Source of the DNA: Chiloscyllium plagiosum
Lineage: Eukaryota
NCBI RefSeq assembly: GCF_004010195.1
Contig: NC_057719.1
Span: 35,981,041 to 36,017,968 of the forward strand
Direction of reading: 5' to 3'
DNA: 36,928 nucleotides
Below are positions 2,682 to 28,125 of the stretch, piece after piece. Positions within the stretch are counted from its first letter, which is position 1. Each line of letters begins with the position of its first letter. Below the pieces are notes generated by a model. That model had not been told where the DNA came from. It did no database searches and was given only the letters and a program-made list of their open reading frames with translations. The translations under genes and the position numbers were made by a program.

Positions 2682-3162
2682 TGGAATGAGGTGCCAGAGG
2701 AAGTGGTGGAGGCTGGTACAATTGCAGGATTTAAATGACAGCTGGATGGGTATATGAATAGGAAGAGTTTAGAGGGATATGGTTCAAGTGCTGGCAAATG
2801 GGATGAGATTGGGCTGGGATATCTGGTGGGCATGGACAAGTTGAACCAAATGGTCTGTTTCCATGCTGTATGTCTCTATGACTCTGTGACATAACCTATG
2901 GCTTCTCTGCAGCCATAACACAATGTTATGGCTGCAGAGAAGCCATAGGTTATGTCACAGAGTCATAGAGACATACAGCATGGAAACAGACCATTTGGTT
3001 CAACTTGTCCATGCCCACCAGATATCCCAGCCCAATCTCATCCCATTTGCCAGCACTTGAACCATATCCCTCTAAACTCTTCCTATTCATATACCCATCC
3101 AGCTGTCATTTAAATCCTGCAATTGTACCAGCCTCCACCACTTCCTCTGGCACCTCATTCCA
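2682..3162. repeat. Perfect inverted repeat, 239-bp arms, 3-nt loop
   Basis: 2682-2920 is the reverse complement of 2924-3162 with no mismatch seen by eye; loop CAA at 2921-2923. Confidence 0.95.
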
Positions 3163-5299: not shown

Positions 5300-5385
5300 G
5301 GTCAACCTGAAATATTAACTTTGCTTTTTCTCCACCGATGCTGCCAGACCTGCTGAGCTTTTCCAGCAAGTTTTTTTTTGTTATC
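5300..5385 (+). mobile_element. Single arm of Penelope-derived family B
   Basis: CTGAAATATTAACTTTGCTTTTTCTCCACCGATGCTGCCAGACCTGCTGAGCTTTTCCAGCAA aligns with 22270-22335. Confidence 0.7.
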
Positions 5386-6342: not shown

Positions 6343-7453
6343 CTTCATTCAAAGACACTCCATGCATCATTAAGAAAATTGACAAAGGGCAGTGTGTGGG
6401 GAGAGGGATTGTGTAGAATGGCATCAATCTTACCTTGCTGCCAGCCCCCACAATGCCTTTCCTGTTATCACCCATCTGTGCCAGGATTACTCCTTGACCT
6501 GAGGCATCAGATGGGTGAAGTAACAGCAGAAGCCACTGCCACCTAGGTGGCACCACTGAGTACAGAGGAATGTTGGCCTCTGGGTGGTCAGGACACTTAT
6601 CCCATCAGTCCTCGACCATGGAGGATGGCCAGCTACATGCTGTCAGGCATTCTTGAAAGTTGGTAATGTGGGGGTCTTGATGGTTTCCTAGCCAACAGCC
6701 CTGTTGCCATTGTAAGATTCTGCCCACCATTTAATGGATTATAACTGCACTGTGTGGTAAACTTTAAAACCTGTTCCACCTAAGTCTTTGGAATGGTAAA
6801 TATAGGGAGTGTGATGGGGTGATGAGCTTGTAGACAATTTACAAAAGACAATTATTCTTTTTCTAAAATGCTCTTGATTGAAATAAGATTTTTGCATGCT
6901 TTATTATTTTTTTCCTACTTTTTAATAAGTAAAAGCTCTAAAACTATGATGAATATTTATAGTTGAGAATCGTCACCTTACAAGATTTTCCATGCTTTTT
7001 ATTACACTTGTTCACAGTTCATCTGACCTTGTTCTTTCTCACAGTTTACAATAATTGCAGCAGTGTTCCAGGTCTTGATGGAAATGTACCCAGGAGCTAA
7101 TGACTGAATTTATCAAATGGATAGTAAAGAGCACTCTTGCTCACAATAATCTCAATCTCAAGAGTGGTATCTGATTTATACTAGGGAGAAGGGCTTTGTG
7201 TAGTCAAGGCTTTGCCAGCTTTCAGCATACAGTATTTATAATTTCTATTGTGCCATTAAATAATGTGTGCACCGTGTAGCCCCATTAGTAAAAATTTGCT
7301 AGATTTTATCTCATTAAATGCCTCATTAGCCACTTAACAAATGGTTGAGCGTTACTATTGCTGGTACATTTCAATTGGCTAAATTATTTACTATTTTGAA
7401 TAAAATTGATTTTGCAATATCTGCATTTTACATTCTGGCATATTCCTGTGAGT

Positions 7454-7670
7454 GGGAGAAAGTGAGGACTGCAGATGCTGGAGATCAGAGTCGAGAGTGT
7501 GGTGCTGCAAAAGCACAGCAGGTCAGACGGCATCCAAGGAGCAGGAGGATCGACATTTTGGGTATAAACCCTTCATCAGGAATGAAGAATGGCTTATGCC
7601 AAAACTTCGAATCTCCTGCTCCTCGGATGCTGCCTGACCTGCTGTGCTTTTCCAGTACCACACTCTCAAC
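7454..7670 (-). mobile_element. Penelope-derived fold-back mini-element (family A) with 15-bp TSD
   Basis: Starts GAGAAAGTGAGGACTGCAGATGCTGGAGATCAGA; inverted arms; CATATTCCTGTGAGT repeated at 7439-7453 and 7671-7685. Confidence 0.85.
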
Positions 7671-7816
7671 CATATTCCTGTGAGTTCCAGAGATACTGAC
7701 TGATGAACAGTTAATATGCTCATACAAGTGTATTACTTAATAAAGGTTGTTAACAAGTTTAAGATAAGAAAGAATTGAAGTATCAGCGAAAGTGGATTCA
7801 GTTCTGTTATCCATAT

Positions 7817-8735
7817 GAAGGAACTGAGGGCATTCTAGCTAAGTTTGCAGATGATACAAAGATAGGTAGAGAGACAGATAGCATTGAGGAGGCAGGAGAC
7901 TGCAGAAGGATTTGGACAGTTTAGGAGAGTGAGCAAGAAAGTGGCGGATGGAGTACAATATTGGAAAGTGTGAGGTCATGCACTTTGGTCGGAAGAATAG
8001 AGGCATGCATTTTTTCTAAATAGAGAGAAAGTTAGAAGTGCAAAGAAATTTGGGAGTTCTAGTCCAGGATTCGCTTAAGGTAAACTTGCAGGTTGAGTCA
8101 GATGGAAAGCAAATGCAATGATGGTATTTATTTTGAGAGAACTCGAATATAAAAGCAGGGGTGTATTTCTGAGACTCAGTAAGGCTGTGGTCAGACCATG
8201 TTTGGAGTATTGTGCACAGCTTTGTGCCCCACATCTCAGGAAGGATGTACTGGCCCTGGAGTGTGTTCAGAGGAGGTTCACGAAAAGCTTAACATATATA
8301 AGGAACATCTGAGAACTCTGGGTCAATAGTTGATGGAGTTTAGAAGGATGAGGGGGATTCTAATAGAAACTTACAGAATACTGAACGGCCTGGACAGAGT
8401 AGATGTTGGGAAGATGTTTCCATTGGTAGGACAGACAAGGACCTGAGGGCAACCCTTAGAACAAAGGAACACCCTTGAGAAGGGAAGTAAGGAGAAACTT
8501 CTTTAGCCAGCGATTGGTGAATCTATGGAATTCATTGCCACATAAGGCTGTGGAGGGCAGGTCATTCAGTATATTTAAGACTGAAGTAGATGGCTTCTTG
8601 ATTGTCAAGGGGATCAAAGATTACAGGGAGAAAGCGGGAGAGTGGAGTTGAGAAACTTAACAGCCATGCTTGAATGGTGGAGTCAACTCAATGGGCTGAA
8701 TGGCCCAATTTCTGCTCCTATGTCTTCTGGTTTTA
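7817..8735 (+). mobile_element. CR1-clade LINE 3' fragment
   Basis: GCTAAGTTTGCAGATGATACAAAG (KFADDTK), VRPCLEYCAQLCAPHLRKDVLALECVQRRFT, 3' end GGCTGAATGGCCCAATTTCTGCTCCTATGTCTT. Confidence 0.9.
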
Positions 8736-8849
8736 TTGCAACAGGTGCTAGCTGCTGGTATTGACAACAGTAATTTGTAGGTTACATTCTCAGTTCTATT
8801 TTAGAATAAATGTACAGTTTGACCCACATTCAGTTATTTTGTTTGGACC

Positions 8850-10680
8850 TTTAACTTGGTGGGGGAAATAATGCACTCCAGCCCCTGAGTGCGCACCTCT
8901 CTCTGAAAGAGTACAGTATTGGTGGACACTGTGTGTTTCCTCTCTAAGGACACCCGAGCATGAACATAGCTATGGGGATGAGGGGTAGGCAGACAGCAGC
9001 TATAGCTCTCTTCAAGGTCCACTACCTGAACCTAATAGGACCCAGCTCTTTTATTACTATATCTTTTCTATATCTAGAGATGGTTTTATGCACCATTGCA
9101 TCTTTTTTCCCAACACCAAATCATCTTTTTTTTCCCTTTTATCTCCACCACTGAATCACTTGTGTTTGTAATGAAGTGACCAATTACATGCGAAGTCTGT
9201 CGGGGCAGTGTAATGACAACAAAAGTGAGGGAAAAGTAGGGTGATAGGGAGGGGACTAAATCAAAATGGAGTTGGAGGAGGAAATAAAGCATTCCACCCT
9301 GCATGGCACTCAGACTCTCATGACATGAAGAATAAGGACCCAACTCTTCCTTTCTCTTTTCCTTGTTTTGTATCCAGGAGTGTTCTTGCACATATCTGAA
9401 CATTTTTCTCACCACCAAACCACCTGTCTAACTTTTCATCTGTTATCTACCATTACTATATCCTAGGTGTTTCTAATTACTTGTCTCGCAAAGTCTATTA
9501 AGGGCAGTGCAATAACATAGAAGGTGAGGAAGGCATCGGGAGACAGTTGGTGGAATTAAATCAAAATGGATTTGGAAGGGCAGATAAAGCACTCTTACCC
9601 ACCTGTCTCTAAAGGCATTAAGAGTGTTGGTGAATACGGTGTGATCCATCTCAAGGACTGCCATGCATGAATGTAACTGCAGAAGGGGGACAGACATTGG
9701 CAATTCTAACCCCAACTCCACTGCCTGATGCCTGGACCTGTTCATTGCCACTTTGCCCAGGCCAAAAGCACAACAACAAAGAGGTCCTTTGACTTGCTTA
9801 ACCCACTCTGGTCTGGATGCCCAAAGGTCAAGAGTGTGGTACTGAAGAGTGACCGAAAGCACAACAAAATATTTAAGAAATGACTGTAAAGAGAGTGCAA
9901 CCACCCATAACCAATGTATGCTTGGTCCATGGGCTTCACATCACTGCAAAATAAACAGATGGGCTGAAGAGGACCCAACTCTTTTTTGTTATATCCAGAG
10001 GTGCTTTCATACACGACTGAAACAGCTTTTCCCCTCTCACCAGTGCTACTTTTCATTTATTACTCACCCATCATTAAACACCCATATTTTCAATTAATCA
10101 GTTTATGTGCAAAGACTGTCAAAGGCACTGCAGGCCTTCAGATTAAGAGAAGACTAGGGAGACAGGAAGGACACAACAGTTTTATTGAAAGCAACCTGTT
10201 CAGAGATATTATTGCATACTTCTGGAGTAGATGGGACTTGAATCTAGGCCTTCTGGCCCAGGTGAAAACACTACTACATCACAAAAAGCCTTAAAGAACG
10301 CAGCTTTTTAAAAAAATTCTTACATCCAGATGTGTTACTACAACAAAATGGCTTTTTCTGACCACCAAATCACCCATGGTATTTACAATTATTAACTACC
10401 ATTAAATCAGTCAATACATTAATTGATTAATTTACATGCAAAGTCTATTAAGGGAAATTCAGGAATGCCAAAAGTGTGGATCAGGGAGAGAGAAGGAGGG
10501 GATTAAATCCTTTTTCAATATCTAGAAGTGCTCTTACACACGACTGCAGTTTTCTTTTCCATCACCAAATCACCCATGGTATTTTTCATCTATAACTATC
10601 ACCACTAAATCTCCCACGTTTCCCAGTGAATCAAATTACATGCAACACCTGGCAAAGGTAATGAGGACACAGCTCTTGGG
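8850..10680. repeat. Degenerate tandem array, about 5-6 units of 200-430 bp, unknown identity
   Basis: Recurrent anchors: GGAC(C/A)CA(A/G)CTCTT at 9038, 9336, 9971, 10665; TAAATCAAAATGGA at 9257, 9557; GCAAAGTCTATTAAGGG at 9488, 10438; CACCAAATCACCCATGGTATTT at 10363, 10563. Confidence 0.85.
10190..10291 (-). mobile_element. Short tRNA-derived SINE-like element inside the array
   Basis: Minus strand AGAAGGCCTAGATTCAAGTCCCATCTACTCCAGAAG...ATCTCTGAACAGGTTG with B-box-like ATTCAAGTCC; homologous to 11205-11272. Confidence 0.6.
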
Positions 10681-10866
10681 TACAAAGGCCAATGAGCATC
10701 ATCTACTGTTGATCAATTCTGCAGCTGTTTTTGTTTGATCTAGGAACCTGGTTAACTCACTGGGCTGGACAGTTGCATTGCGATGTAGAGTAGGAGTACA
10801 CTTCCCACACCAGCTAAGGGTGCGTTGGAGATCCAACCTTCCCAAACTTGACCCTTAAGTTAAATG

Positions 10867-11110
10867 GAGAAAGTGAGGACTGCAGATGCTGGAGATCAGA
10901 GCTGAAAATGTGTTGCTGGAAAAGCGCAGCAGGTCAGGCAGCATCCAAGGAACAGGAGAATCGACGTTTCAGGCATGAGCCCTTCTTCAGGAACCTTCCT
11001 GAACCTTCTTCAGGAACCTTCCTGAAGAAGGGCTCATGCCTGAAACGTCGATTCTCCTGCTCCTTGGATGCTGCCTGACCTGCTGCGCTTTTCCAGCAAC
11101 ACATTTTTAG
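10867..11110 (-). mobile_element. Penelope-derived fold-back mini-element (family A), young, 15-bp TSD
   Basis: Near-perfect arms of about 95 bp (10901-10994 and 11019-11111); CCCTTAAGTTAAATG at 10852-10866 versus CCCTAAAGTTAAATG at 11111-11125. Confidence 0.9.
11019..11055 (+). ncRNA. Candidate minimal type I hammerhead ribozyme; mirror copy on the minus strand at about 10958-10993
   Basis: CTGAAGA-A-GGGC-TCAT-GCCT-GAAAC-GTC fits CUGANGA/stem II/GAAA/NUH; stems I and III are very short; activity untested. Confidence 0.6.
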
Positions 11111-11204
11111 CCCTAAAGTTAAATGCACCACCAGTTGTCTCTCTCTCTCTCTAATGAGAGACTAGCCCTGTGTCCCTCTGGAACTATGATGACTTTACTT
11201 TGAA

Positions 11205-11272
11205 TCAAGAGGCCTGGGTTTAAGTTCCACCTGCTCCAGAGCTGTGTAGTAACATCTCTGAACAAATTGACT
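11205..11272 (+). mobile_element. tRNA-derived SINE-like fragment
   Basis: GAGGCCTGGGTTTAAGTTCCACCTGCTCCAGAG...ACATCTCTGAACA, homologous to 10190-10291. Confidence 0.55.
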
Positions 11273-11617
11273 AGAAAATATATTTTGGTTTACCCTGAAA
11301 GGAACCTGCATTTCTAATGTTGACATTGGAAAGTGCTAAACTAGCAATATCTCTGCTGTTTTGACCTTTTCTCCCTGAATGAACTTGCTTCTGAAAGTCT
11401 GTTTCTCTGTGTTGTAAAATTCCAGTCAGCAAATACCTTACCTATTTATCTCCCTGGAGCTTGCTTGTCATTTAGCTAAAATCACATGATTTCTTTTAGC
11501 TCACTGATGCAAATTATTTTCTGGCCATTTTTATAAAGAATCACTTGCACTGCTTTGAAATTCAGATTCCATATATCTTCTTAGAACCTGTGTATAGTGA
11601 TAATTATATTGAGCCTT

Positions 11618-12087
11618 CACACAGAAGGTGGTACAGGTCTCGAATAAGTTGCCAGAGGAAGTGGTGGAGGCGAGTACAATTGCAACATTTAAGAGGCATT
11701 TGGATGGGTTATATGAATAGGAAGGGTTTGAGGGGTATGGGCCGGGTGCTGGCAGGTGGGACTAGATTGGTTTGGGATATGATTAGATTACTTACAGTGT
11801 GGAAACAGGCCCTTTGGCCCAACAAGTCCACACCGACCCGCCGAAGCGTAACCCACCCAAACCCATTCTCCTACATTTACCCCTTCACCTAACACTACGG
11901 GCAATTTAGCATGGCCAATTCACCTAACCCCTGCACATTTTTGGATTGTGGGAGGAAACCGGAGCACCCGGAGGAAACCCACACAGACACGGGGAGAATG
12001 TGCAAACTCCACACAGAGAAATCTGGTCGGCATGGATAGGTTGGACTGAAGGGTCTGTTTCCATGCGGTACATCTCTATTACTCTAT
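11618..12087 (+). mobile_element. CR1/HER1-like LINE 3' end interrupted by a SINE
   Basis: CCAGAGGAAGTGGTGGAGGCG...TTGGGATAT | CTGGTCGGCATGG...GGGTCTGTTTCCATGC and CTCTAT tail. Confidence 0.88.
11781..12017 (-). mobile_element. HE1-type SINE, 5'-truncated
   Basis: GATTAGATTACTTACAGTGTGGAAACAGGCCC tail as at 1058; tRNA-like head absent. Confidence 0.9.
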
Positions 12088-12279
12088 CTAACAGCATTAC
12101 AGATTTTCACCTCCTTGCATCCAATCTAGCTACCCAGCTGACTCTCTTTATACTCTATTTGAATATCAGCTAAACAAATGGACAAAGTAACTCATTTTGC
12201 CATTCTTTATATTTGCTCTCAATGTTGAATCAAACAATCCTCATCACATATCTTATGAATAATGGCATATTTGGTAGTT

Positions 12280-12863
12280 ATAGAGTCATACAGCACAGAA
12301 ATAGGCCATTCGGTCCAACCTGTCCATGCTGACCAGGTATCCTAAACTGGACTAGTCCCATTTGCCAGCATTTGGTCCATATCCAATTCATGTATCTGTT
12401 CAAATGTCATTTAAATGTTGTAACTGTACCTGCATCCACCATTTTCATAATGGCACCACTCTCTGTGTGAAAAAGTTGCCCCTCAGGAAAATGTAAAATC
12501 TTTTCCCTTTCACCTTAAACCCATGCCCTCTACTTTTGGATTTCCATACCCTCGGAAAAAGACTTTGGCGATTTACCTTATCTATGCCCCTCATGATATT
12601 ATAAACCTCTATAAGATCACCCTTCAGCCTCTGATGCTGAAGGGAAATAAGTCCCAGCCTATCCAGACTCTTCTTATAACTCAAACCGTCCAGTCCCAGC
12701 AACATCCTTTTAAATTTTTTCTATACCTTTTCCAGTTAAATAACCTCCTCCTTACAGCAGGGTGACCAGAACTGTAAGCAGGATTCTAAAATTGGCTTCT
12801 GCAATGTCCTGTACAGCCGTAACATGATGTCCCAACTCCTATACTTGTTGGTCTGACCAATGA
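12280..12863 (-). mobile_element. CR1/HER1-like LINE 3' fragment
   Basis: LSYKKSLDRLGLISLQHQRLKGDLIEVYNIMRG...RGNFFTQRVV (12445-12705); tail ATAGAGTCATA. Confidence 0.9.
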
Positions 12864-13892
12864 ATAGTGCAATGGTGGTCACCTGTAATGTGACATGAAC
12901 CCAGGGTCCCGGTTGAGGCCCTCCCTATGAGTACTGAACTTAGCTATCAGCCTCTGCTTGGCCACTTTTTGTTGCTGCCTGTCCTGAAGTCCGCCTTGGA
13001 GGATGGTCACCCGAAGGTCCGAGGTTGAATGTCCTGGACCACTGAAGTGTTCCCCAACTGGGAGAGAACACTCCTGTCTGTTGATTGTTGTGCTATGACA
13101 ACGGATGAATGGACACCGCATAAGGTGACCACCATTGCACTATACACACACACACTCTCACACACCCACCCACACACAGGCACTCCTATACATACATACA
13201 CACTGACACACATATACACAGACACGCACATCGACACCCACACACATCCTTACAGACACACACACTTCCACAATCACACATGCACCCCCTCACAGACTTA
13301 AGACACTCTACACTCACTACACACACACATACACTTTCTCACATTCACAGCCCCCAACCCAGACAAACACACACACACAGACAGACAAAGACCCACATGC
13401 ACACATATATTTTGTGGGGTGAATTTGTACTTGCAGGGTTACATTGTACTTTGCTCAAAAACTGCATGAATTCATGTAAAACTCCGTTATCTCACTTTTT
13501 AGATTAGAATCAATTGAAACATCATGGCAGAGAACACAGGGGGCTAACACCTTCAACATATTGTCTAGCTATCACCATTGTTAACAGCTAACCTGAGAAT
13601 GCAACTTTTTAAAAAAATGTTTTGTGATTTACACATGAAAGAAGTGAAACTATCATGGTATTCAAAGAGATGAAAGACTTAACAGACAATCAATTTTTCA
13701 ATGTATAATTTCAGTTACATCAGACTGTAAATTTTTGCTATAAATTCTGTGTTAGGATTGAGCCCTCCACTACCACCTGATAGTCGCTCTGAAAGCTAGT
13801 ATGCTTCCAATTAAACCTGTTGGACTATAACCTGGTGTTGTGTGATTTTTAACTTTGTACACCCCAGTTCAACACCGGCATCTCCAAATCAT
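12864..13892 (+). mobile_element. Penelope-like element remnant: rearranged GIY-YIG C-terminus plus pseudo-LTR
   Basis: TTINRQECSLPVGEHFSGPGHSTSDLRVTILQGG...LIAKFSTHREGLNRDPGFMSHY on minus 12879-13093; CA-rich 3' region; damaged hammerhead CTGAT...GAAAGCTAG at about 13777-13800; end ACACCGGCATCTCCAAATCAT. Confidence 0.85.
13141..13405. repeat. Degenerate (CA)n-rich tract in the Penelope 3' region
   Basis: Directly visible; explains the H/T-rich and C/V-rich spurious ORFs. Confidence 0.92.
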
Positions 13893-16800
13893 GACTCTAA
13901 TTTTATACATGCTACTTTTTTGAGGATAGGAAACCTGCTCAATAAGAATACAGCTATCTTTGATGTAACTCAATATCATCAAATCTGAATTTCTTTAGTT
14001 AACAAAATCAGTCTGTCTTATTCTTAGAATTAACATTTTATATAGCAACTACTGATATTTGTGGAGGACAATTCTCAAACTGTTAGACCCTTTTAGCATG
14101 GACATGTGCCTCATGTGGCATATTGAGTCGATGCAGTGGCTAGTTACTACAGTAAATGTGCAGTAAATACAACCGCTACTGATATCTTGGTGCTACAATG
14201 AAAGCTCAGACAACAGTTATGGCTTTGTTGCCATTGTTATGATCTCCAAGTTGATCCAGAGTCCAAAACAAAACCCAAATGATGAAATTACTGTACAATA
14301 TTTCACTTTTCATGACTTTTACTTTAACATGAATCAGAATCAATGCAAAAAAGCAGATTATCAGACTTATCACAGTTGAAATGAAGTACAAATTACATGT
14401 GGAATGTCAGATAAAACATTATGGTATCTCCTGGATCTTCTAGACAGCTATTCCATTTGTAAGACGCTGCCATCAGTCACACAGTTCTTACAAGCTTGTA
14501 TCTTCATTGTACGCAATTTTAAACCCTTTCCTTCAAGGACTTAGCTATTTCCCTGTAGACAGCAGCATCCACGTAATTAGGGCTTCACCCTATTCTTCCA
14601 TACAATAGGGCATTTTTTTCTTGAGCTTTCTCAATTGTCAATCCCTGCTGGTCATGGTAGTGTGGATCTACCAGAAGCACCTTTATGCAGATAGGGTAGT
14701 TTTGAAACCAATCACTTGTAAGTTAAACCAATGGCAGCAACAGGTTAAATGTGCTTTCTGATTGCTCAGGAATTCAGCTGTCTGACTTGGCTTGCTAACT
14801 GTCTCCTCTCTCCAGCTTTCCTCCTTTGTCTTGGTTTGTCTTCATGTGGCCTTTGAATTTTAACATCCTTCCTATTTCCAGGTCAAAATTCATCAGATCA
14901 CATGGAGCTAGAGTTTCTTATTTTTGCAAAATTATAATTGGTTTATTTACAATTGATGCATACTCCTAGAAGTCCTTTCCAAATGTCTTTAAAAGCAATC
15001 ATAGATACCCCAGATTTTCCTTACTGTTACTATTTCTGGCGTAAAGGAAATCACACAATGCGGCCTGTCATTTTTATCATCATGGGTACGGATCTCAGTA
15101 TACAAATGAGCTTGTGTGATCTCACAGCATCTCAGCAATCCTTCCTCCAACAAGGTTGGTTTTGCATAAAAAATCGTTAGGAGAGGCAAAGCCATCCATT
15201 AGCTGGGTGCTCAGGCAAAGCTCAGGGCTGATTTATTTATTTATTTTTGTTTCTATAATTGAATGTGCTGGTGGATGATAATATTACAGAAATTATTTTG
15301 TGGCTTTTATTGCAACAACTTGGTGAAGGAGATGGACTCCAAGATGGATGGGAAGTCAATGGATAATGAACCGATGATGATAAATGAATGACCTCTTGAG
15401 CAAAACAAAGTCCACTTAAATAGCCTTGAGCAGCTTGTTTAGGAGTTCTGGATATCTACTCCCTGCCAGAACGGTGGGCTGCCATCATAATCCAATCACT
15501 GTTAACATTTGCGCTGTACACATGGTAACCTGTGCTAGGAATGTGTCTCTGATAGGGCATCTCGCACACCATGCCAGATATGTGTTGACTATCATTTACT
15601 TATTTTGAAACTCCCAAAGTTCATTAGTTTACAATCAAAGCTACTTCATGGGTAAGTAGAAATTCAGAATCCAGCAGGAAGAGAAGAGGATTGATCATGA
15701 GTTATTGTGAAAATCAACGTGATGCTGAATGAATGCTGTTGAAGAAGATTGGATGCTTGAGACTAAGCTGTCACCAGATGAAGAAAGTAATAAGATCTTT
15801 ACCTTGAATAAGTCTCATAGACTTGGATGGGAAGTTTATAATTGGCTATTACATTCTCACTAAACTTTTATGCTCTGTGCTTCAGTGCTTTATTTATGAA
15901 TTTGCTTCCATATTGTGTCCAGTCTGCCCATTCTGTGGTAATCTTGAACTGAACAGTAATGCTGCTGCAATGGTTAAACTGATGGTGATATTATCTTGAT
16001 AAATTGTTTTTAATGTACTACTGTTCCTGTCTAATATTGGCTCACTTAGAAGCATGAAAGTGTCAGATAATGCCTATAATATTGACATACTTCTTTGTTA
16101 TTATTGAGTTTGACTTTTTGAAATCTTGGATATAAATTCAAGTCAAATAAAAGTGATAGTGGCTACATTTGGAATCTTATTTCATATCCTAGGCAAACTT
16201 AAATTCTGATGTCTCATTTCCAAAAGATTTAATTGGCTAGATGTTTACACATAATCCTATGGTGATGGTTTAAATTTGTTACAGCAAATTTAAATATAAT
16301 AATAAAGGAAAAACTAAGACCACAGCAACTAAAATGTCTTGTTTAGTTTTCATGTTTTCTCTTTCATCAAAAAATAACTCTCTTGGAATGTTGGAATTTA
16401 TGAACACTTGTAGCTTCCAAAGAAAGCATGATTTTGAACAAAATGTACCATACGTAAATATCAAAACTGGTGGTTGACTAAAACGTTTCAAAGCTACTGG
16501 TTAAAAGAATTCAGACTAATGCTAAGAGCCTTTCTGATGGTGCCTAACTTTGAAAATATAAATGGAATTTTGATAACAGGATGTCTGACAAAAAAACATA
16601 CATTTAAGAACAAGTTACAATTATTAATAAATGGACCTGAAAGTGCAAGATTTGTACTGCTGTAGAAGGGCTTTGAAAGACTCAATTACACACAGAGAAA
16701 GGATTCATTGCGGTTGTCACATATTATCAGGTGCCAAAATATCATCATACTTAATAATCTGAAGAGAAAGATGCGTGTCAATTTCCATACAACCTAGGGC

Positions 16801-18111
16801 CTGTTCTCATTAAATATGTTGATAAAACAAATGCTTAGTTATGTTGTTGCTGAATATGTGCAAGATTAGCAACTCCTAAAATAACCTTAACGTACTGTTC
16901 TCATTTCCTTATTAACAAGCATAACAATTAAAAATAGTACAAACCTAGCCTTCTTTTAACTGGTGAACACTTGTGGATTAAATGAAAGCCTCAAATGACC
17001 TATTCTGGCATAAAGAGAATAAAATGCTTATCTTTAAGATCTCTGGCTTTTTACAATAAAGGGATATTGTGAAACAAAATTAAGCTTTGAATCACAAGTA
17101 TGTTAGCCTCATTTGACCTACTGGAAATAAAAGGCAAGTGTTAGACATCTGAACTTTTTGTAACATAATCCTACTTTAAATTAGAACTTAATCAGATTCG
17201 ACAGGAGATTTGTGTCAAATCACGCTATATATAAAACTGTAATTTTGTAACATTGCTGGATTTATGGCACCCAAGGAAAGCATTATTGGATTAAGGAGCA
17301 CCAGAGAAAAATATAAATTTTTTGTTTAGCTATGTATAACTGTTACTGAACTCACAATTTATTTATTCTAAAAAAACAAAGCCAACATATCCTTATTTGG
17401 CTTACTGAAAAAAACTGAAGGTCAATATTTATAGGAAAGAATTCTGCTGCCTCCGACTGGTCAGTAGGCACTTCCTGGCAGGTTCAGATGGGAAACTGAT
17501 AGGGCCCTTGCAGACTAAAGTGTTAAAATCTGCTGGGTCTCACTGTGCATTAGGCTGGGTTATTTCCTGTCCACCTTGGTCTAACCAGCATGGCTTCTTT
17601 CAGGGATATAGTTTCAGCTAATCTGTTTACTGTTCTGCAGTACAGGGCAAGATTTTAACCCATTCAAAACTTGTCCACTTTCACAGTGTTGAAATTAGGC
17701 TGAAAGCAACTGGATAAATTATTTCCCCATAAAAGACCAGATCCTATTAAAAAGTACTTGACCAAATCAAGCATTGCTTTGCATTATTAAACAGTGTGCA
17801 TGTTAATATCCATATTTTGATGAATTTTAAAATGTTGGGTATGATCCATGACTGTCAATTGCTTAAATGCCAACCTGACTCACATCAAATTCTCTTTGGG
17901 CAATTGTTTTGCACAACTAAATGAGTAAAACAACAAACATCTCCATAATTCCAAATACATTGAATAGATTTTTAAGATATTCAAATATGAATCACACCAA
18001 ATGCTTTGGACATTGATACTATTTACCATTTTGTTGTCTGCTCATGTCAAATGACCATTTCCTTCAATAGTGTTTTCAATTTTGTGCAGTTTAATTGGCT
18101 GATTATATCAT

Positions 18112-18460
18112 AAGTCCCACTCTGGAAAATCAAAGCTGTGCAGAGCACTGTTGAAACTCTCATTTTTCAGTTGAGGTGCTAAACCAAGGTCCTGTCAGTA
18201 CTGTCAGGTGGACATAAAAGATCGCATGTCTCTATTTTAAAGTAGAGCAGAGGAGTTATGGTAACCTGCCAATGATTATCTCTGAATCACTCACAAAAAT
18301 AAATTATTTAAGTCATTTTCACATTGTTATTTATTGGAACTTGGTGTGTTTCCTCTGCTGCAACAATGACTACACTACAAAAATACACTGCAAAATAAAA
18401 AGGACTTTGGGAAGTTTGGAGGTAGTAAATGGAGCTTTCTAAATGCAAGGTTTTCTTTTT
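18112..18460 (+). mobile_element. DeuSINE (SacSINE1/AmnSINE1-related) relic
   Basis: Deu-domain-like TAAACCAAGGTCCTGTC...TCAGGTGGACATAAAAGATCGCATG...AGAGCAGAGGAGTT; 3' ACAATGACTACACT...TAAATGCAAG. Confidence 0.75.
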
Positions 18461-19043
18461 ATAAGAACCTAAAGAGCTTAGAGAAAGGCTAAGGGCCAAG
18501 CTTATTAGACATTGTAAAAACTCCCCTTTCAGGGGCTCAAAACAAATGTATTTAAATTTTCTACGGAAATGATTTGTCTAATTTCACCAGATCACACAAG
18601 ATAATAAAGATACTTCGTAATACTTACTGTCGGTATTTCGTGAGTTCAATAATAGAATGAGAGGAAATTATTCAGGAATATTTGGCTACTTCAGGTCATA
18701 ATTATCCCTTTATCCTTCAAACTGTTTCAAACCAGAGATGCTTTTCTGAAGGAGTTAATCGACTGAGCATTCGGAAGTATACCAAAAATTCTAATTTTTA
18801 CCTAACATTTGATCTTGATTAAAACCTGTTCAGTTTATACTTCTCTAACTCTATGATTGCAGACTTATTTATATAACGTCCTTGCATCTACATTACCTAT
18901 AATCTCTTCCTACCTGAAAAGCCTGGATAATGGCCTTCGTTGGGATTTTTAAATAAACATCCAAAAATGGACCTGTTGATTGCAACTTTTTTTATTAAGC
19001 ACTAGCTCATCCATTTATCTCTCTGACAATAACGGAAACATTG

Positions 19044-19219
19044 AGGCCTTGAATTTTGCAAATCTTCCAATATCCCACTATAGTTTTTTTTGGAGACTGA
19101 CAAGCAAAGTCTTCCAGGGAAATGGAAAATGGTAATCTTAAGCTGTCTCTCTCATTTCCATGAGGGCTACTGCCAGTTATAGTAAGAAAGAAGGAGAATC
19201 CCCTAAGAATTTCAGGGTC
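19044..19219. mobile_element. Degenerate MITE-like palindromic element
   Basis: Imperfect terminal inverted repeats GGCCTTGAATTT / AATTTCAGGGTC and internal inverted blocks GGAAATG / CATTTCC and CTATAG / TTATAG. Confidence 0.45.
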
Positions 19220-20384
19220 TGTGAACCACGATTCAGTTGTCTGTGAGTAAATGCCAGATGAGTCAATTAATTTCCATGGATGTTCTTGGCTGGTGATGGA
19301 GTGGGGGTGTGAGAGGGCAAGGAGAGGTTTTGTTTAGTATAAGTGAGGAAGATTGTAACATAGTAACATTTACTGGCAAGGTTATTAGCTAATAATGATG
19401 TGAAAGTATTAGAGAAACAGCACATAGAATACAAACATGCTGCTGATGAAATCTGTGTCACAGGTCAATATTTATCTATGACGCTGATGCTGGTGGAGTA
19501 AAATTAGTCAGTCCTCTTGCTGTGTAGATTTTTCCGCTTACAATGTTAGTATTTAGAGGCACATCAAATTTTCATATTGTGAATGCCGCAGTACTTTATT
19601 TTCTTTTGATAGAACATGGTTTAATTCAGCAGGCACATCTTTTACAAGGATTGTTCAAATTAAACACAAAAAGCCACATAAGGACACAAGGTTGAGACTT
19701 AGTGTCACCTGTTTGGTAATCAGCAAAAAGCTGCTTTGTGCTCCACTGACCCTGTAGCCCTGAAAAGGATTATGAAACAAAGGTTTTCTCAGGTAATCTG
19801 TGGTTCATCCAGGTTTTAACGAAGTTAATACCTTTCATTGAAACACTGATAAATAAAGAAATCTGGAGAATCTGGTTCCACTCTAGTTCTTTAAAATGAG
19901 TTAAATGATGTTTTATAAAGTTCACAATATTTTTATCTCAGTTTATGAGCAGAGGAAACTAACTCACCCTCATTTCTGAGATCTAAATGTTAAAAGTGTT
20001 TTAATTGATTATTAATTAATTAAAAGTATTAATTGATTGTGTGTTCAAATTTTTAAAGCAAAAATGAAGATTGCACTCCATCTGCAATAAAATCTGGCTG
20101 GAGGATTTGGTGCATCAGCCGTTTACTGTGCAGGTTGAAAAGAACAGCTCAGGCTGAGGCATATGACATAACTAAAGCTGATAACACAAAAAAAGACTCA
20201 AAGGAAGCATTTTGCTTAACAATTAGAAGCTCTCGGAAAGAAATGGAGCTCAGACGTGATGTGAAGAAAATTTACACTCAATGTAATTTTTGTTACTTTG
20301 TTTTCTATCTCCCCCTTTTTTTCTCTTGCTCCTCACGAACTCCTCTCTTGTGTCTACCTCAAATTTGGTCAGTGATTAGGGACA

Positions 20385-21070
20385 AGAGGGTGTGCCGATG
20401 ATTGAGGCAGGAAGAGGAATCCAGGAGGTAGTGCTGACAGACCCTTGGGCTTGTCTACCGAGTTTGGGATTCTTGCTCCCTGCGTAGATGAGAGTGAGGG
20501 CTGAAGGAAGGTGGCAAACGGACCGTATCCTGGTACGGGGAGCCATTGAAGAGGGGGCTAAAAAGAGAACTGTAATTACAATCAGGGATAGTATAGCCAG
20601 GGAAATGGACTCTGTTCTCTGTAGCCCGATTCGAGAGTCAAGGCTATGTTGCCTGCCTGTTACTAGCTAAGCCAAGGGCAAATTTACAGGGTCAACAAGC
20701 TTAAAGATGTAAATGTGTAGCTCAAAGATTGATATGGGATAAACAGTTTAAATTCATGCGACGTGGACACCAGTACTGGGGAAGGAGGGAGTTCTTCTGA
20801 TGGGTCAGGGGACTGCAGATGAGCTTGGAGGGGGAGGGGAAGATCCAATTGTTATGGCCCACGTAGGTACAAGTGATATCAGTAGAAAGAAGAATGAAAT
20901 TCTGCTGAGGGAATATGAGCAGCTAGGAGCTAAAGTAAAAAGCAGAACCAAAAAGCAATAATCTCTAGGTGGCTACTTGAACCACGAACAAATTGGCACA
21001 GGAGGTAAATGCTTGACTCAAAGATTGGTGTGGGATAAGTGCGTTTAAATTCATAGCACATCGGTACCAG
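20385..21070 (+). mobile_element. CR1 LINE ORF1 (SGNH esterase-like) decayed fragments
   Basis: VITIRDSIAREMDSVLCSPIRESRLCCLP resembles the GDS(I) block of CR1 ORF1; further motifs AHVGTSDI and LLREYEQLGAK. Confidence 0.75.
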
Positions 21071-21072
21071 AA

Positions 21073-21160
21073 ACAAATTATTGCAGGTGCTGGAATCTGA
21101 ACTGAAAACAAAAAAATGCCAAAGATCACAGCAGGTCAGGCAGCATCCATGGAGAGAGCA
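21073..21160 (-). mobile_element. Single arm of a related Penelope-derived element
   Basis: TGCAGGTGCTGGAATCTGAACTGAAAAC...CACAGCAGGTCAGGCAGCATCCATGGAGAG shares the CAGCAGGTCAGGCAGCATCC core with family A. Confidence 0.65.
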
Positions 21161-21334
21161 TTCTATTATTACTATTGTAACAGCCAATATACTGCCTCGA
21201 AGTGTACCATCTCCTTTCGTGACATCTCCATAGTTTTGCATTTTATGAAACAGAGGGATTGTTGATAGCAGTTAGATAGGCATTTAGCCAGTAAATTCCA
21301 GATTTTTTTGTCATCCCCACATGGATTACATTAG

Positions 21335-21920
21335 TTAAAGTGTACAGCACAGAAACAAGTTATTTGAACCAAGTGGAAATTGCGGCATTTATATTCCACG
21401 TGATCCTTCTTCTGGCATAATCCGTCTAACTCAATCAGTGTATCTTTCCATTCCTTCTCCCTTCTTTAGTTTCCCCTTAAATGCATCAACTGTTTGCTTC
21501 AACTGTTTCGTGTGAAAGCAGGTTCCATATTCTAACCACCTCCAGGTAAAAAGAACATTTCTCCTGAATTTCCTACTGCCTGTATTAATGAATGTCATGG
21601 ATTTATAAGTTTTAATTTAGAACTCTCGTAGATGGAAATATTTTATTGATGTTGATTCCAACAAACTCTTAATTATCTTGAAGGTCTCCATTAAATCATT
21701 GCTGAGCTTCAACAGCAGTGGGCCTAGCACATTTCGAACTCTATATCCTACTTTTGCCAACTGAGTAGACACCCTTAAACCTTTGTTTTCTGTTTTATAG
21801 TCAGCTTTTTATCTATTGTGCTACCTTGCCAATGAAACCACATGTTTTGCCCTTAGTTCTGAAGCTGTGTGGTACCTTACTGAAGACCTCTTGAAAGTTC
21901 AAATGTATTACATCCAATGC
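21335..21920 (-). mobile_element. Ancient CR1/L2-type LINE 3' relic
   Basis: TACAGCACAGAAACAAG tail; GGTTCCATATTCTAACCACCTCCAGGTAAAAAG is the reverse of the FFTQRVV..WN-type block. Confidence 0.55.
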
Positions 21921-22117
21921 TGGCTTTATTACATTTTCTTTGTTTCTATATTTTCCCTAGTTCCATTCTCCTTCCTACAAAATTAGCAATTTTTCTAATC
22001 TCTTGCTTTGGTCTTTGTCTTATTGTGTATTTCTTAATTATTGGTTTTATATCTTATTATGTTATGATTGTTGTTACCTAGATGTTATGCTATATTTATT
22101 TCTCTGGATTTTTTTTG

Positions 22118-22385
22118 GGAAAGCACAGTAAATGTTTCGAGTCCAGTGGCCCTTCTTCAGAAATGAATTCTGAAATATAAATATATGTTCTGAAGATAAA
22201 TTCATGACAGTAACTGACAGATTTTTGGTCCTAAGGGAATTGAGTTCTGAAGAAGAAACACTAGGGTCTTGAAACATTAATTCTGCTTTTTCTCCACAGA
22301 TGCCACCAGACCTGCTGAGTTTCTCCAGTAATTTCTGTTTTTGCTTGGTTCAGATCTCCAGAATCCGCAAGTTCCTTGTTTTATT
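22118..22385 (+). mobile_element. Penelope-derived fold-back mini-element (family B) with captured DNA in its loop
   Basis: Left arm ATGTTTCGAGTCCAGTGGCCCTTCTTCAGAA; right arm TTCTGAAGAAG...GAAACATTAATTCTGCTTTTTCTCCACAGATGCCACCAGACCTGCTGAG; tail CTCCAGAATCCGCAAG. Confidence 0.78.
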
Positions 22386-22764
22386 ATATCAAAATAGTCA
22401 AATTATTTCTCTTTATTACTGTTATCTAAAATAAAACTTGTTTCTTCAATGAACTCAAAAATAATTTGAAATAACTTATTCTTGTGGCTAGAAATCCTTT
22501 AGCATATAGACCTATCTCTTTAAAACCAAGTTGCTCCTGCAATTAAAGTCATACACTGAATTTCTTATTTCTCTTAAAAGCTTTGCTCATCTCCTTTCCA
22601 AAGTTGCTTGTTTTTCAGTGGACAGCAGGTGGCTTACAGCATTCAATAAACTGTTGGCTTCACGACCACATGTTAAAAACTTTCAAAATCAGAGAATATA
22701 CAAATAGTTCAAAATCTTCCAGATCTTCCAGCTAGTTCTTAAATATAAATATACATTCTGAACA

Positions 22765-22955
22765 TATTGAATATATTCATGACAGTGATTGACAGATTTC
22801 TGCGTACTAAGGGAATTGTGGGAAATTAGAGTAGAGTAGGAAGGTATAGCTGAAGTAGAATATTAATCATGATCTTCGTAAATGGTACAGCAGGCTCCAA
22901 GGGGAAACCAACCACCTTCTACTCCTTTTCTTGTATTCCTGTGTCCTATATTCTT
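22765..22955 (+). mobile_element. Old CR1 LINE 3' end
   Basis: GAATATATTCATGACAGTGATTGACAGATTT...CATGATCTTCGTAAATGGTACAGCAGGCTC. Confidence 0.65.
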
Positions 22956-23156
22956 ATTGGCCTTCTTATCCACTGGGTACACTTCATATGTATATATGAG
23001 CCCTCTGCAGCTACATTCCTAACCTATCTAACTGCATTTTCTGGGATGTAATTGCAAATTCTGATGAGAGAATTACAGGGCAGTGTGAGGTAAAGTCTTA
23101 TTCTTGACCTGCAGGAGGCAGGTCATTGGGAATGGGAGACATGTGGAATGGAGTGA

Positions 23157-24245
23157 ACACAGAATATAGAACATAGAACACAGAATATTACAGTACAGTT
23201 CAGGCCTTTTGGCCCTAAATTGGCTATGCAATTACTCATAGTGTCCAGGGATATGCAGGTTAGGTGGATTGGCCATGCTAAATTGCCAATCGTGTCCAGG
23301 ATGTTGCGCCAACCTGTGGAACCAATCTGAAGCCCATTATTCCTACACTATTTCACTTTCATTCAGATGTTTATCCAATGACTATTTAAATGCCCTTAAA
23401 ATTGGTGAGTCTACTACTATTGCAGGCAGTGCATTCCATGTTCCTATTATCCTCTGAGTAAAGAAATTACCTCTAACATCTGTCCTATATCTAACACCCC
23501 TCAATTTAAAGCTACGTCCCCTTGTGCTAGCCATCACCATCCAAATAAAAAGGCTCTCACTGTCCAATCTATCTAACCCTCTAATTGTCTTAAATGCCTC
23601 AATTAATTCACCTCTCAACCTTCTTTTCTCTAATAAAAACAGCCTCAAGTCCCTTAGCCTTTCCTCATAAGACCTTCCCTCCATACCAGGCAACATCCAA
23701 GTAAATCTCCTCTGAACCCTTTGCAAAGCTTCCACATCCTTCCTTTAATGTGATGACCAGAACTGTACTCAATACTCCAAGTGTGGCCGCACCAGAGTTT
23801 TGTCCAGCTGCAGCATGACCTCATGGCTCTGAAATTCAATCCCTCTACCAATAAAAGCTAACGCACCGTATGCCTTCTTAACACTCCTATCAACCTGGGT
23901 GGCAACTTTCAGGGATCTATATACATGGACAATGAGATCTCCCTGCTCGTCTACACTACCAAGAATCTTACCATTAGTCCAGTACTCTTTATTCCTGTTG
24001 CTCTTTCCAAAGTGAACCACCTCACACTTTTCCGCTTCAAACTCCTTTTGCCACCTCTCAGCCCAGCTCTGCAGTTCATCTATGTCCATCTGTAACCTGC
24101 AATGTCCTTCAGCACTATCCACAACTCCACCGACCTTAGGTCATCCACAAATTTACTAATCCATCCTTCTGCGCCGTCATTTAGGTCATTTATAAAAATA
24201 ACAAACAGCAGTGGCATCAAAACAGATCCTTGCGGTACACCACTA
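23157..24245 (-). mobile_element. CR1-clade LINE RT and 3' fragment
   Basis: SGVPQGSVLMPLLFVIFINDL, ISKFVDD, LVRPHLEY, QRVQRRFT, RGNFFTQRII; (AGAACAT)n tail. Confidence 0.93.
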
Positions 24246-24548
24246 AGAGAGATGTCAATAACAGAAGAAACCATACAGGAACTACAAAGTTTATACATTC
24301 ACTGTAAATCCTTTAATGAAGAGGAACAGGACCTTGGAACCCAGTCAAATAACTAGTGTATGTATGGTTTTGTATATCAGTTTTATCACTCACATGCACC
24401 TGTTGTGTGCTTCCCATTCCCTGCCTCCTCATGCTCAGTGCTCCCTCCTTTCTTCCTGCACCCCTCTGCCCCCATTCACTTCACTGCTCGCCCTTCCCCC
24501 AGTCCATGCACATTACCATTTGCTGCTGCTTGTGCTTACACCTCTCAC

Positions 24549-24968
24549 GGGCAACACAGTGCCTCACAGCACCAGGGTTTGATTCCACCCTCAGACAATT
24601 GTGTGGAGTTTGAACATTCTCCCCATGTCTGTGAGGGTTTCCTTCAGGCGCTCTGGTTTCCTCCTACAGCCCAAAGATGTGTAGATTAGATGGATTGGCC
24701 ATGCTGAATTACTCATAGTGTCGAGGGATATGCAGGCTAGGTGGATTGGCCATGCTAAATTGCCCATAGTGTCTAGGGATGTGCAGACTAGGTGGATTGG
24801 CCATACTAAATTGCCCATAGTGTCTAGGGATGTGCAGGCTAGGTGGGTTAACCATGGGAAGGATTATAAGGAAAGGGTGGGTCTGGGTGGGATGCTCTTT
24901 GGAGGGTTGATGTGGACTTGAACGGTCAAATGGCCTGCTGCCTGTAGGGATTCTATGATTCTATGATT
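24549..24968 (+). mobile_element. HE1-type SINE with expanded internal 51-bp repeat
   Basis: Decayed head GGGCAACACAGTG...GGGTTTGATTCC; units start at 24676, 24727, 24778, 24829; (GATTCTAT)n tail. Confidence 0.9.
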
Positions 24969-25100
24969 CAATCCTAAATTCCCTCACCCTTCTCATTATA
25001 TTCAGGGAGCAGAGGGTAGGAGTGGAGGGAGTGGGAAGGAATGGGATGTTGTGAAGGGAGCATTGAAGAGATGGCATAATTTGCCTTGGTTAAATCTGTG

Positions 25101-25258
25101 AGGAGAAAGTGAGGTCTGCAGATGCTGGAGATCAGAGATGGAAATGTGTTGCTGGAAACACATTATGAAGAAGGGCTAATGCCCGAAACGTCGATTCTCC
25201 TGTTCCCTAGATGCTGCCTGACCTGCTGCGCTTTTCCAGCAACACATTTCCATCTCTT
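25101..25258 (-). mobile_element. Penelope-derived fold-back mini-element (family A), 16-bp TSD
   Basis: CTTGGTTAAATCTGTG at 25085-25100 and 25259-25274; short left arm, long right arm with ATGAAGAAGGGCTAATGCCCGAAACGTC. Confidence 0.88.
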
Positions 25259-25749
25259 CTTGGTTAAATCTGTGCCATCTTTGATGTGTACAGCCACCTG
25301 GGTTGTTGCTGTCCATGAAGCACAGGCATTCACTGCAACAGCACAGGAAATTTGGGTGACAGTAAATGTGACTATTTTTAAATGGAAACTTTCTATCTAA
25401 ACCCATTATTTTGCAGTGCACCCTTCCTATCAGTAGTGATGCTGTGTAAGCTAGATTTCCTCTCACAGTTTTCCAGCAGAGAAACTCACACTTATTTCAT
25501 TATCTGCTTTTTGCACTTGCTGCAAGTTTAGATGTTTAATATAGGCAATTAAATATATCAATAAGATTATAGATAAAGAGAAGATTTGAGTTTCATATAG
25601 TTCTTATATACTACTTTTGAGCAGGAGAGGTGAACAAAGGAACTCAAGACTCATCTGATCACTGTGAAAATGGATGGTAGGAAAACCTCATCACTTCATG
25701 CCCATATTCCATGAAAGGAAAAAGAAAGACAAACGATATCATACAATTT

Positions 25750-27441: not shown

Positions 27442-27690
27442 GAAGCGCAACTCACCCATACCCCTACATTTACCCCTTCACCTAACACTACGGGCAATTT
27501 AGCACGGTCAATTCACCTGACATGCACATCTTTGTGACTGTGGGAGGAAACCGGAGCACCTGGAGGAAACCCACGCAGACATGGGGAGAATGTGCAAACT
27601 CCACACAGACAGTCGCCTGAGGCGGGAACTGAACCCGGGTCTCTGGTGCTGTGAGGCAGCAGTGCTAACCACTGTGCCACCATGCCACCC
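27442..27690 (-). mobile_element. HE1-type SINE lacking its 3' tail
   Basis: Head GGGTGGCATGGTGGCACAGTGGTTAGCAC and GGTTCAGTTCC; similarity to 1058-1372 stops at GAAGCGCAAC. Confidence 0.9.
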
Positions 27691-28125
27691 ATTGATCATT
27701 GAGAGTAGACTGATGGGGTGGTAATTGACTGGTTTGGATTTGTCCTGCTTTTTGTATACAGGACATATCTGGGCAATTTTCCACGTGGTTGGGTAGGTAC
27801 CAGTGTTCTAACTGTACTGGAAGAGCTTGGCTGGGCATGCGGCAAGTTCTGGAGCACAAGTCTTCAGTATTATTGCTAGAATGTTGTCATAGCCGTTGCA
27901 GTGTCCAGTACTTCCAACAATTTCTTGATATCATGAGGAGCAATAAATCAAATTGGCTAAAGACTGGTATCTGTGATTCTGGGACCATTGGAGGAGGTCA
28001 AGATGGATTACCACTTGGCACTTCTGGCTGAAGATTGATGCAAATGTTTCAGCCTTATCTCTTGCTCTGAAATGCTGGGTTCTCCCATTATTGAGGATGA
28101 GGATGTTTACGGAGCCTCCTCTTTC
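27691..28125 (-). mobile_element. LINE (CR1/L2 group, second family) RT N-terminal fragment
   Basis: Minus strand encodes TWKIAQICPVYKKQDKSKPVNYHPISLLS. Confidence 0.85.

Follow-up and report, generated by a model that had tools for sequence, protein, structure and literature searches.

How does a retroelement come to leave behind a short insertion made of two inverted copies of its own end, with a tail on one side only? The question is raised by a window of 36,928 nucleotides from the bamboo shark Chiloscyllium plagiosum (NCBI RefSeq assembly GCF_004010195.1, contig NC_057719.1, forward-strand positions 35,981,041 to 36,017,968; coordinates below are those of the window), which holds three such insertions, here called E1, E2 and E3. 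We favour the reading, with a probability of roughly 0.6, that they are independent dead-end insertion products of an endonuclease-bearing Penelope-like element (PLE) family, built by twin priming. In the twin priming known from L1, a second cDNA is started from the second target strand, so that an inversion ends up within a single target-site duplication (TSD), and the second primer lands upstream at variable places. In the shark elements, by contrast, the site of the second priming would be fixed and lie 31-35 nt downstream, and the two cDNAs would overlap and form a palindrome.

Anatomy of the three insertions

The insertions measure 217 nt (E1, 7454-7670), 244 nt (E2, 10867-11110) and 158 nt (E3, 25101-25258), and their anatomy can be read directly from the window. 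A 31-nt head occurs exactly three times in it when up to nine mismatches are allowed (with 0, 0 and 1 mismatches). E1 is framed by a 15-nt TSD (7439-7453, identical to 7671-7685) and consists of an unpaired tail (7454-7489, minus strand), a tail-bearing arm (7490-7587, minus strand) that has its hammerhead core C at 7579 and extends 6-8 nt upstream of the core, and a tail-less arm (7583-7670, plus strand) that overlaps the tail-bearing arm by 3-5 nt at a natural hairpin. E2 lies between 15-nt TSD copies with one mismatch (10852-10866 and 11111-11125); its tail (10867-10901, minus strand) is followed by a tail-bearing arm (10902-10993, minus strand, core C at 10990), an apex (10994-11018) with a 23-nt duplication (10981-11026) of the snap-back junction, and a tail-less arm (11019-11110, plus strand, core C at 11022), the minimal hammerhead boxes being intact in both arms. 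E3, within a 16-nt TSD (25085-25100, identical to 25259-25274), has a tail (25101-25133, minus strand), a tail-bearing arm of 25 nt without a hammerhead (25134-25158, minus strand), a 7-nt filler (25159-25165) that may have been copied from the arm by a small snap-back or may be what is left, in worn form, of the stretch upstream of the core, and a tail-less arm of 92 nt (25166-25257, plus strand) that begins one base inside the hammerhead core, with the first C lost.

The flanking repeats match at 15 of 15, 14 of 15 and 16 of 16 positions. They are beyond chance, because a repeat of at least 15 nt with at most one mismatch flanked just one of 3000 random boundary pairs drawn from the window. 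When the two arms of an element are aligned, E1 shows 16 differences in 89 columns, E2 shows 2 in 92 and E3 shows none in 25; the insertions thus differ in age. Counted from the GAGAAAG motif, the unpaired tail is 34 nt (E1), 34-35 nt (E2) and 31 nt (E3) long; counted from the TSD edge, it is 36, 34-35 and 33 nt. An inverted end copy with a one-sided tail of 31-36 nt is therefore common to all three elements. The fold-back is nearly symmetric in E1 and E2 but not in E3, where the tail-bearing arm ends after about 58 nt and gives way to the filler, pairing extends over 25 bp only, and about 67 nt of its tail-less arm have no counterpart in the tail arm.

These measurements bear on the first-pass annotation of the window, which had described non-coding Penelope-derived fold-back elements between 7439 and 25274. 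Its three insertions, with direct repeats of 15, 15 (1 mismatch) and 16 bp, were recovered at the same positions by re-measurement, and the apices do differ in all three, as it had said. The 17.8-kb span, on the other hand, is not one unit and holds three separate insertions. The fold-back shape stands for E1 and E2 but gives way in E3, and the tail lengths of 34, 34 and 31 nt were reproduced (34-35 in E2) but are narrow in range rather than constant. As for the absence of an open reading frame (ORF), open frames of 83-117 aa do run across the elements; the three that were scanned, one per element, gave no Pfam match.

At its head each arm has the order of a minimal hammerhead of type I, in which the first core box and a single unpaired base precede a 4-bp stem II, GAAA and a CGUC palindrome, in agreement with the PLE motif of PMC4209133. 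Of the five young arms that reach the core, only the two of E2 keep both boxes intact. The tail-bearing arm of E1 keeps the first box and has a mutated GAAA box, both boxes are broken in its tail-less arm, and one is lost from the tail-less arm of E3. Stem II is 3-4 bp in all five of these arms, with variable loops, and is closed by G-U in the tail-bearing arm of E2; at about 260-460 lies an older relative whose stem II is different, perfect and 5 bp long. An Rfam search returned 13 matches, all hairpin-type and below the gathering score; no model in it detected the hammerhead motifs. Predicted folds of six arm pieces were no more stable than shuffled sequence (z -0.6 to 1.4), and folding energy thus lends no support to any structure beyond stem II.

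The hammerhead core also serves as a reference point. It lies 89, 89 and 93 nt from the end of the tail-less arm and 126 and 125 nt from the tail end. Relative to the core C, the starts of five of the six young arms fall at about -8 to +2, and three older arms start at about -6, -6 and 0. Such clustering of arm starts suggests run-off at the RNA 5' end. The hexamer TCATTC or TCATTT, which has a frequency of 0.0018 per position in the window, stands at the arm start in E1 and in one older copy; we take it to resemble an initiator, which would make it a candidate RNA start. A downstream promoter element like that of D. virilis was sought by eye, with no match in register.

The end module across the genome and at its target sites

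Four of the 22 listed sequencing runs were used, namely raw reads of C. plagiosum itself (organism A) and contigs of two relatives (organism B twice, organism C once), all mapped to positions 7200-11450, which cover E1 and E2 and leave E3 outside. Depth at 10904 reached 53,048, against a mean of about 0.37 in seven hand-picked low bins out of 30, which puts the end module at about 10^5 copies (0.8-1.4 x 10^5 for an assumed genome of 3-5 Gb). Among the reads at 10904, 4,985 of 53,048 (about 9%) carry one extra A, marking a subfamily of the E2-type end.

At the tail end the boundary is sharp. Reads stopping there number 22,450 at 10866 (agreement 0.36) and 7,702 at 7455 (agreement 0.34), and the flanks beyond are AT-rich and random-like, with agreement of 0.33-0.36 in all ten rows; agreement this low implies that, at many loci, the element truly ends there. 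The other side behaves differently. Past the E2 apex, 15,997 reads depart at 10993 (agreement 0.68) and 8,503 at 11019 (agreement 0.57), and about 37-66% of these loose ends continue into a common upstream body. The data thus contain a fixed 3' end, given by the tail boundary, and variable 5' truncation of a longer element, given by the shared body. Because many arms continue into that body, we regard E1-E3 as ORF-less ends of a longer element and not as a palindromic family.

The joints between arms are correspondingly heterogeneous. More than 3,500 joint types were found among 164,958 reads, and of the 15 joints shown, those at apices have at most ten reads each; no apex is a family-wide feature. 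Joints in reads and contigs connect tail arms cut at 7485, 10925, 10933, 10937, 10944, 10956, 10981, 10989 and 10990 to a tail-less arm that starts at 11019-11033. One of these, 10944-11019, is present in six reads of organism A, and an identical 11-letter insert is seen at it in both runs of organism B. A joint of head-to-tail type (10866-11019) is rare, with 15 reads and 14, 4 and 4 contigs, and is spanned by no long record. The most frequent joints of all (7484-7496 to 7655-7666) were attributed to mapping that switches from one of E1's two diverged arms to the other, and were discounted.

The flanks also hold a signal at a fixed distance. In the ten flank consensus rows (two counted by script and the others by eye, and thus not a direct histogram of TSD length), a C stands exactly 15 nt upstream of the head in five and at 14 or 16 nt in two, and is absent from three; in the seven rows with the C it is preceded by a G, and the rest of the consensus is AT-only. 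The three TSDs of the window start at -16, -14 and -17 from the head, each at G-N|C (chance about 6 x 10^-5). A G-N|C at a fixed distance fits a second nick at a preferred site. As to the relatives, the E1 site is filled in organism B, where a contig reaches 31 letters into the element, and probably also in organism C (25 letters), and the right junction of E1 was found in contigs of both.

Proposed priming from two strands and its alternatives

In the twin-priming model the PLE enzyme would nick the two target strands some 15-16 nt apart, with a weak preference for G-N|C in AT-rich DNA. Reverse transcription would begin from one nick at a site inside the RNA, some 90 nt from its start, and from the other nick at a site 31-35 nt further on, producing the tail; this part of the model is taken over from the behaviour of an anole PLE in vitro. 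Each cDNA may then either stop early or extend as far as the RNA 5' end, which would lie just ahead of the hammerhead. Microhomology or a short snap-back would let the two cDNA 3' ends be joined, and the TSD would result from gap filling. The top strand would leave the left TSD as an antisense copy starting at the tail end, and the bottom strand would leave the right TSD as an antisense copy from the site 31-35 nt nearer the RNA start. Longer copies could arise by the same priming at the downstream pseudo-long terminal repeat (pLTR) of a read-through RNA. We infer the enzyme, the two primings and the RNA start from the products they would have left. Three observations lead us to prefer two primings over a single fold-back: the tail-less arm of E3 holds about 67 nt that its tail arm lacks; in the joints, a full tail-less arm is attached to tail arms of many different lengths; and a FUBP3-like gene model of C. 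plagiosum ends in an exonised single tail-less arm, running from the core to the same end point, with no tail arm. The arm in that model lies between two copies of a 5-residue word, equivalent to a repeat of about 15 nt as judged from the protein.

A single priming is unlikely but deserves serious attention. The cDNA from the tail end would reach the RNA 5' end, fold back on the small hairpin there, copy itself and be cut or joined 31-35 nt short of its start. The natural hairpin at the E1 apex and the 2-nt-loop snap-back at the E2 apex are what such a process would leave, the stem II base common to both E2 arms is missing in E3, and both self-priming at junction palindromes (PMC3846280) and endonuclease resolution of the tail (PMC8557442) have been proposed. 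A second arm made in this way cannot, however, carry sequence that the first lacks, as it does in E3 and in the read joints, unless deletions followed; a lone tail-less arm with a TSD-sized repeat exists, by the protein-level evidence above; and two primings on one RNA would account for the shared E2 base just as well. What keeps the fold-back under consideration is that later deletion in the palindrome could mimic part of the asymmetry. Hairpin priming, which the first-pass annotation had offered as one route, is not supported as the sole one, given the longer tail-less arms in E3 and in several joints. Its Penelope origin is supported by the architecture and the minimal hammerhead; its suggestion that unique apices would mean formation at insertion agrees with the thousands of joint types and with the arms mostly continuing into the body; and the fixed cut geometry it had proposed is supported across the genome by the target motif, which lies about 15 nt off the tail end. 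The retrozyme-like family that it had also entertained did not survive: the two hammerheads are inverted, both core boxes are kept in E2 only, and the nine listed rows include no same-sense tandem.

Could the stumps instead be mobile in their own right? It would be a long shot that the leader of about 125 nt is a PLE-dependent RNA resembling a short interspersed element (SINE), with its own internal promoter and containing the RNA start, the hammerhead and both priming sites, and that simultaneous priming at both nicks of a fixed 15-nt staggered cut makes a new palindrome at each jump. Only half of the genomic form would then be the mobile unit of such a non-autonomous retroelement, and its 10^5 copies would record, on the scale of a whole genome, the origin of PLE inversions and tails. 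More doubtful still is a self-propagating non-autonomous family in which the leader, or the whole palindrome, is transcribed from genomic copies and re-inserted by the PLE enzyme in the manner of a SINE or retrozyme. The very high copy number and stereotyped size would suit it, as would the recurrence of the 10944-11019 apex, the contig depths of 211-299 in organism B against about 10-20 in unique flanks, the internal promoter of D. virilis Penelope (PMC2377424) and the PLE-derived retrozymes of vertebrates (bioRxiv 2026.07.22.740005). Contig depth is nevertheless not copy number, the recurrent apices make up at most ten reads each among so many joint types, and those of E1-E3 differ; the hammerheads are inverted and not in tandem, with head-to-tail joints as rare as the 15 reads at 10866-11019. 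If the analogy holds, moreover, the anole PLE, as far as the available account of it goes, needs about 54 nt of RNA beyond the distal start (172 versus 111-118), which the stumps lack. Collapse of long inverted-pLTR insertions after the event, by cruciform cutting and repair that removed the middle, is very improbable. Long bodies do occur in the family, and the 23-nt apex duplication of E2 and the filler of E3 look like repair products, yet deletion would scatter the end points, and five of six young and three older arms start within about 8 nt of the core. Finally, a foldback DNA transposon or miniature inverted-repeat transposable element with long inverted repeats is barely credible: it would explain short, non-coding, high-copy units with inverted arms and a flanking duplication, but not the 31-36 unpaired nt at one end in all three, which mean that the inverted repeats are not terminal, nor arms that bear a hammerhead, can be found singly and extend into a longer body.

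Several points weigh against twin priming by an endonuclease-bearing PLE. The asymmetry of E3 could be a later deletion in a palindrome, and the joint table is biased in that the reference tail-less arm itself begins at 11019. None of the six young arms in the window enters the body, compared with about half of the reads, and two body motifs of 14 and 17 nt have no match in the window. The TCATTC or TCATTT bases of the candidate RNA start double as hammerhead stem I. The motif at -15 may partly reflect a subset of copies with a shared continuation; it is missing from three of the ten flank rows, and the rows are not all independent. An empty site for the TSD was not seen in the three contig runs of the two relatives across 7200-11450: the left junction of E2 in organism B is covered by 22 letters only, below our bridging rule, and a contig of organism C that departs at 10843 with 46 unplaced letters may or may not represent an empty site. 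DNA scans and protein searches found no ORF for reverse transcriptase (RT) and GIY-YIG endonuclease (EN) with these termini. Scans with the terminus gave no match in viral contigs, metagenome contigs or prokaryote genomes. A profile of the arm translations matched only two isoforms of one C. plagiosum gene model with an exonised arm, a search in another frame gave no protein match, and a search of protein representatives gave three matches, of which one is a short protein ending in the arm translation and two are repetitive chance matches; in none of the arm-translation searches did a match read through into RT or EN. The window has a single PLE protein piece, the end of a GIY-YIG ORF at 12882-13139 (minus strand), and this was rejected as the partner since its own end repeat (about 13780-13899) differs. 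With no partner ORF linked, PLE membership rests on architecture and hammerhead.

Known Penelope-like insertions and neighbouring repeats

An inverted pLTR, a tail and a TSD together are the published pattern of PLE insertion, and the shark elements are in this sense ordinary PLE debris. Insertions of Pen2a_Av have inverted pLTRs with a 31-bp tail on one of them, junction palindromes and TSDs of 8-10 bp (PMC3846280). The PLE tail is otherwise given as 30-40 bp (PMC8557442), inverted pLTRs and short extensions are also on record (PMC8969392), and Penelope of D. virilis has a 34-bp repeat as well as the internal promoter, which lies in its pLTR (PMC2377424). With such EN-bearing insertions the shark units share head-to-head end copies, a one-sided extension of 31-37 nt, a TSD round the whole unit, a junction palindrome and a hammerhead in the end repeat. 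They differ from those published, as far as the available text goes, in having no ORF between the arms at a total length of 158-244 nt, in TSDs of 15-16 nt as opposed to 8, 9 and 10 bp, and in arm starts that cluster at the hammerhead edge. Dual minimal hammerheads on opposite strands, about 100-700 bp apart, have been reported across metazoans and taken as truncated PLEs (PMC4209133). These are probably the same kind of object as E1-E3, although the available part of that report describes them without TSD, tail or apex analysis and without sharks. Non-LTR retrozymes, by comparison, are head-to-tail tandems yielding circular RNA (PMC7229834; bioRxiv 2026.07.22.740005); the shark elements resemble them in being short, non-coding and related to PLE pLTRs with a type I hammerhead, but are head-to-head pairs with mostly broken cores.

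The closest biochemical precedent is Poseidon of Anolis carolinensis, whose purified protein cuts and extends both strands of AT-rich targets in vitro and starts reverse transcription at two internal RNA sites, the interval between which is the tail (PMC11167929). Its start sites lie about 111-118 nt from stem II, as against 89-93 and 125-126 nt from the core in the shark, and its ORF starts at stem II, whereas the shark frame from the matching ATG stops before the tail. The available part of the Poseidon study offers no model of inverted copies or of TSD length, and describes the later steps as unvalidated in what is the sole PLE system in vitro (PMC11167929); elsewhere the origin of the inverted ends and tails of PLEs is described as undefined (PMC8557442). 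Our literature search, from which subscription papers were mostly outside, found no paper on these shark elements or on twin priming by PLEs. What is new here is the read evidence for copy number and a longer body, the target motif at a fixed distance and the unequal arms. The value of some 10^5 short, complete insertions lies in the test that so large a natural data set allows: TSD length reads out the stagger of the cuts, tail length gives the spacing of the priming sites, and twin priming can be told from fold-back by the asymmetry of the arms. If the twin-priming model is right, PLEs use both strands for priming, at two internal sites that are fixed, and in many cases insert no more than their 5' leader.

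Bamboo sharks do encode PLE proteins with RT, zinc-finger and GIY-YIG parts, but of another family; the Pfam GIY-YIG match was below the cut-off in two of eight. The GIY-YIG piece in the window is 89-93% identical to proteins of Chiloscyllium punctatum and less close to those of Hemiscyllium, Scyliorhinus and Mustelus. It forms part of a composite at 12862-13899 in which the inverted end of the GIY-YIG ORF and its own plus-strand 3' region are fused and overlap by about 20 nt, the latter being an AC-rich stretch followed by an end repeat with a deleted hammerhead. This arrangement looks like an L1-type 5' inversion; a TSD was looked for around it and not found. Other shark gene models carry exonised GIY-YIG pieces.

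Older relatives of the three insertions are also present in the window. One at 22120-22375 has two arms, each starting about 6 nt ahead of the hammerhead core, and a possible, weak AT-rich TSD matching at 13 of 15 positions (22096 and 22403), the only candidate to come from a TSD search at six older or neighbouring pieces. The decayed piece at 260-460 has a tail-like stretch in addition to its 5-bp stem II, and single decayed arms of older related end repeats lie at 5308-5379 and 21069-21154; no TSD was found at any of these.

The DNA of the window is repeat-rich in general. A perfect inverted repeat of 239 bp with a 3-nt loop occupies 2682-3162, in surrounding sequence that we take to be a CR1-like long interspersed element; no TSD was found for it, and it could be either a very recent fold-back or an assembly artefact. 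An integrase fragment of a long terminal repeat retrotransposon lies at 35397-36041 on the minus strand (Pfam Integrase_H2C2, E 4e-16). SINE copies that resemble shark HE1 are found at 1075-1373, 1702-2019, 11792-12016, 24600-24947, 27454-27691 and 33243-33447, one of them with 3.4 tandem units of 51 nt (24676-24846). A direct repeat of 123 nt with 97% identity (33078-33200 and 34196-34318) has a spacing of 1,118 nt.

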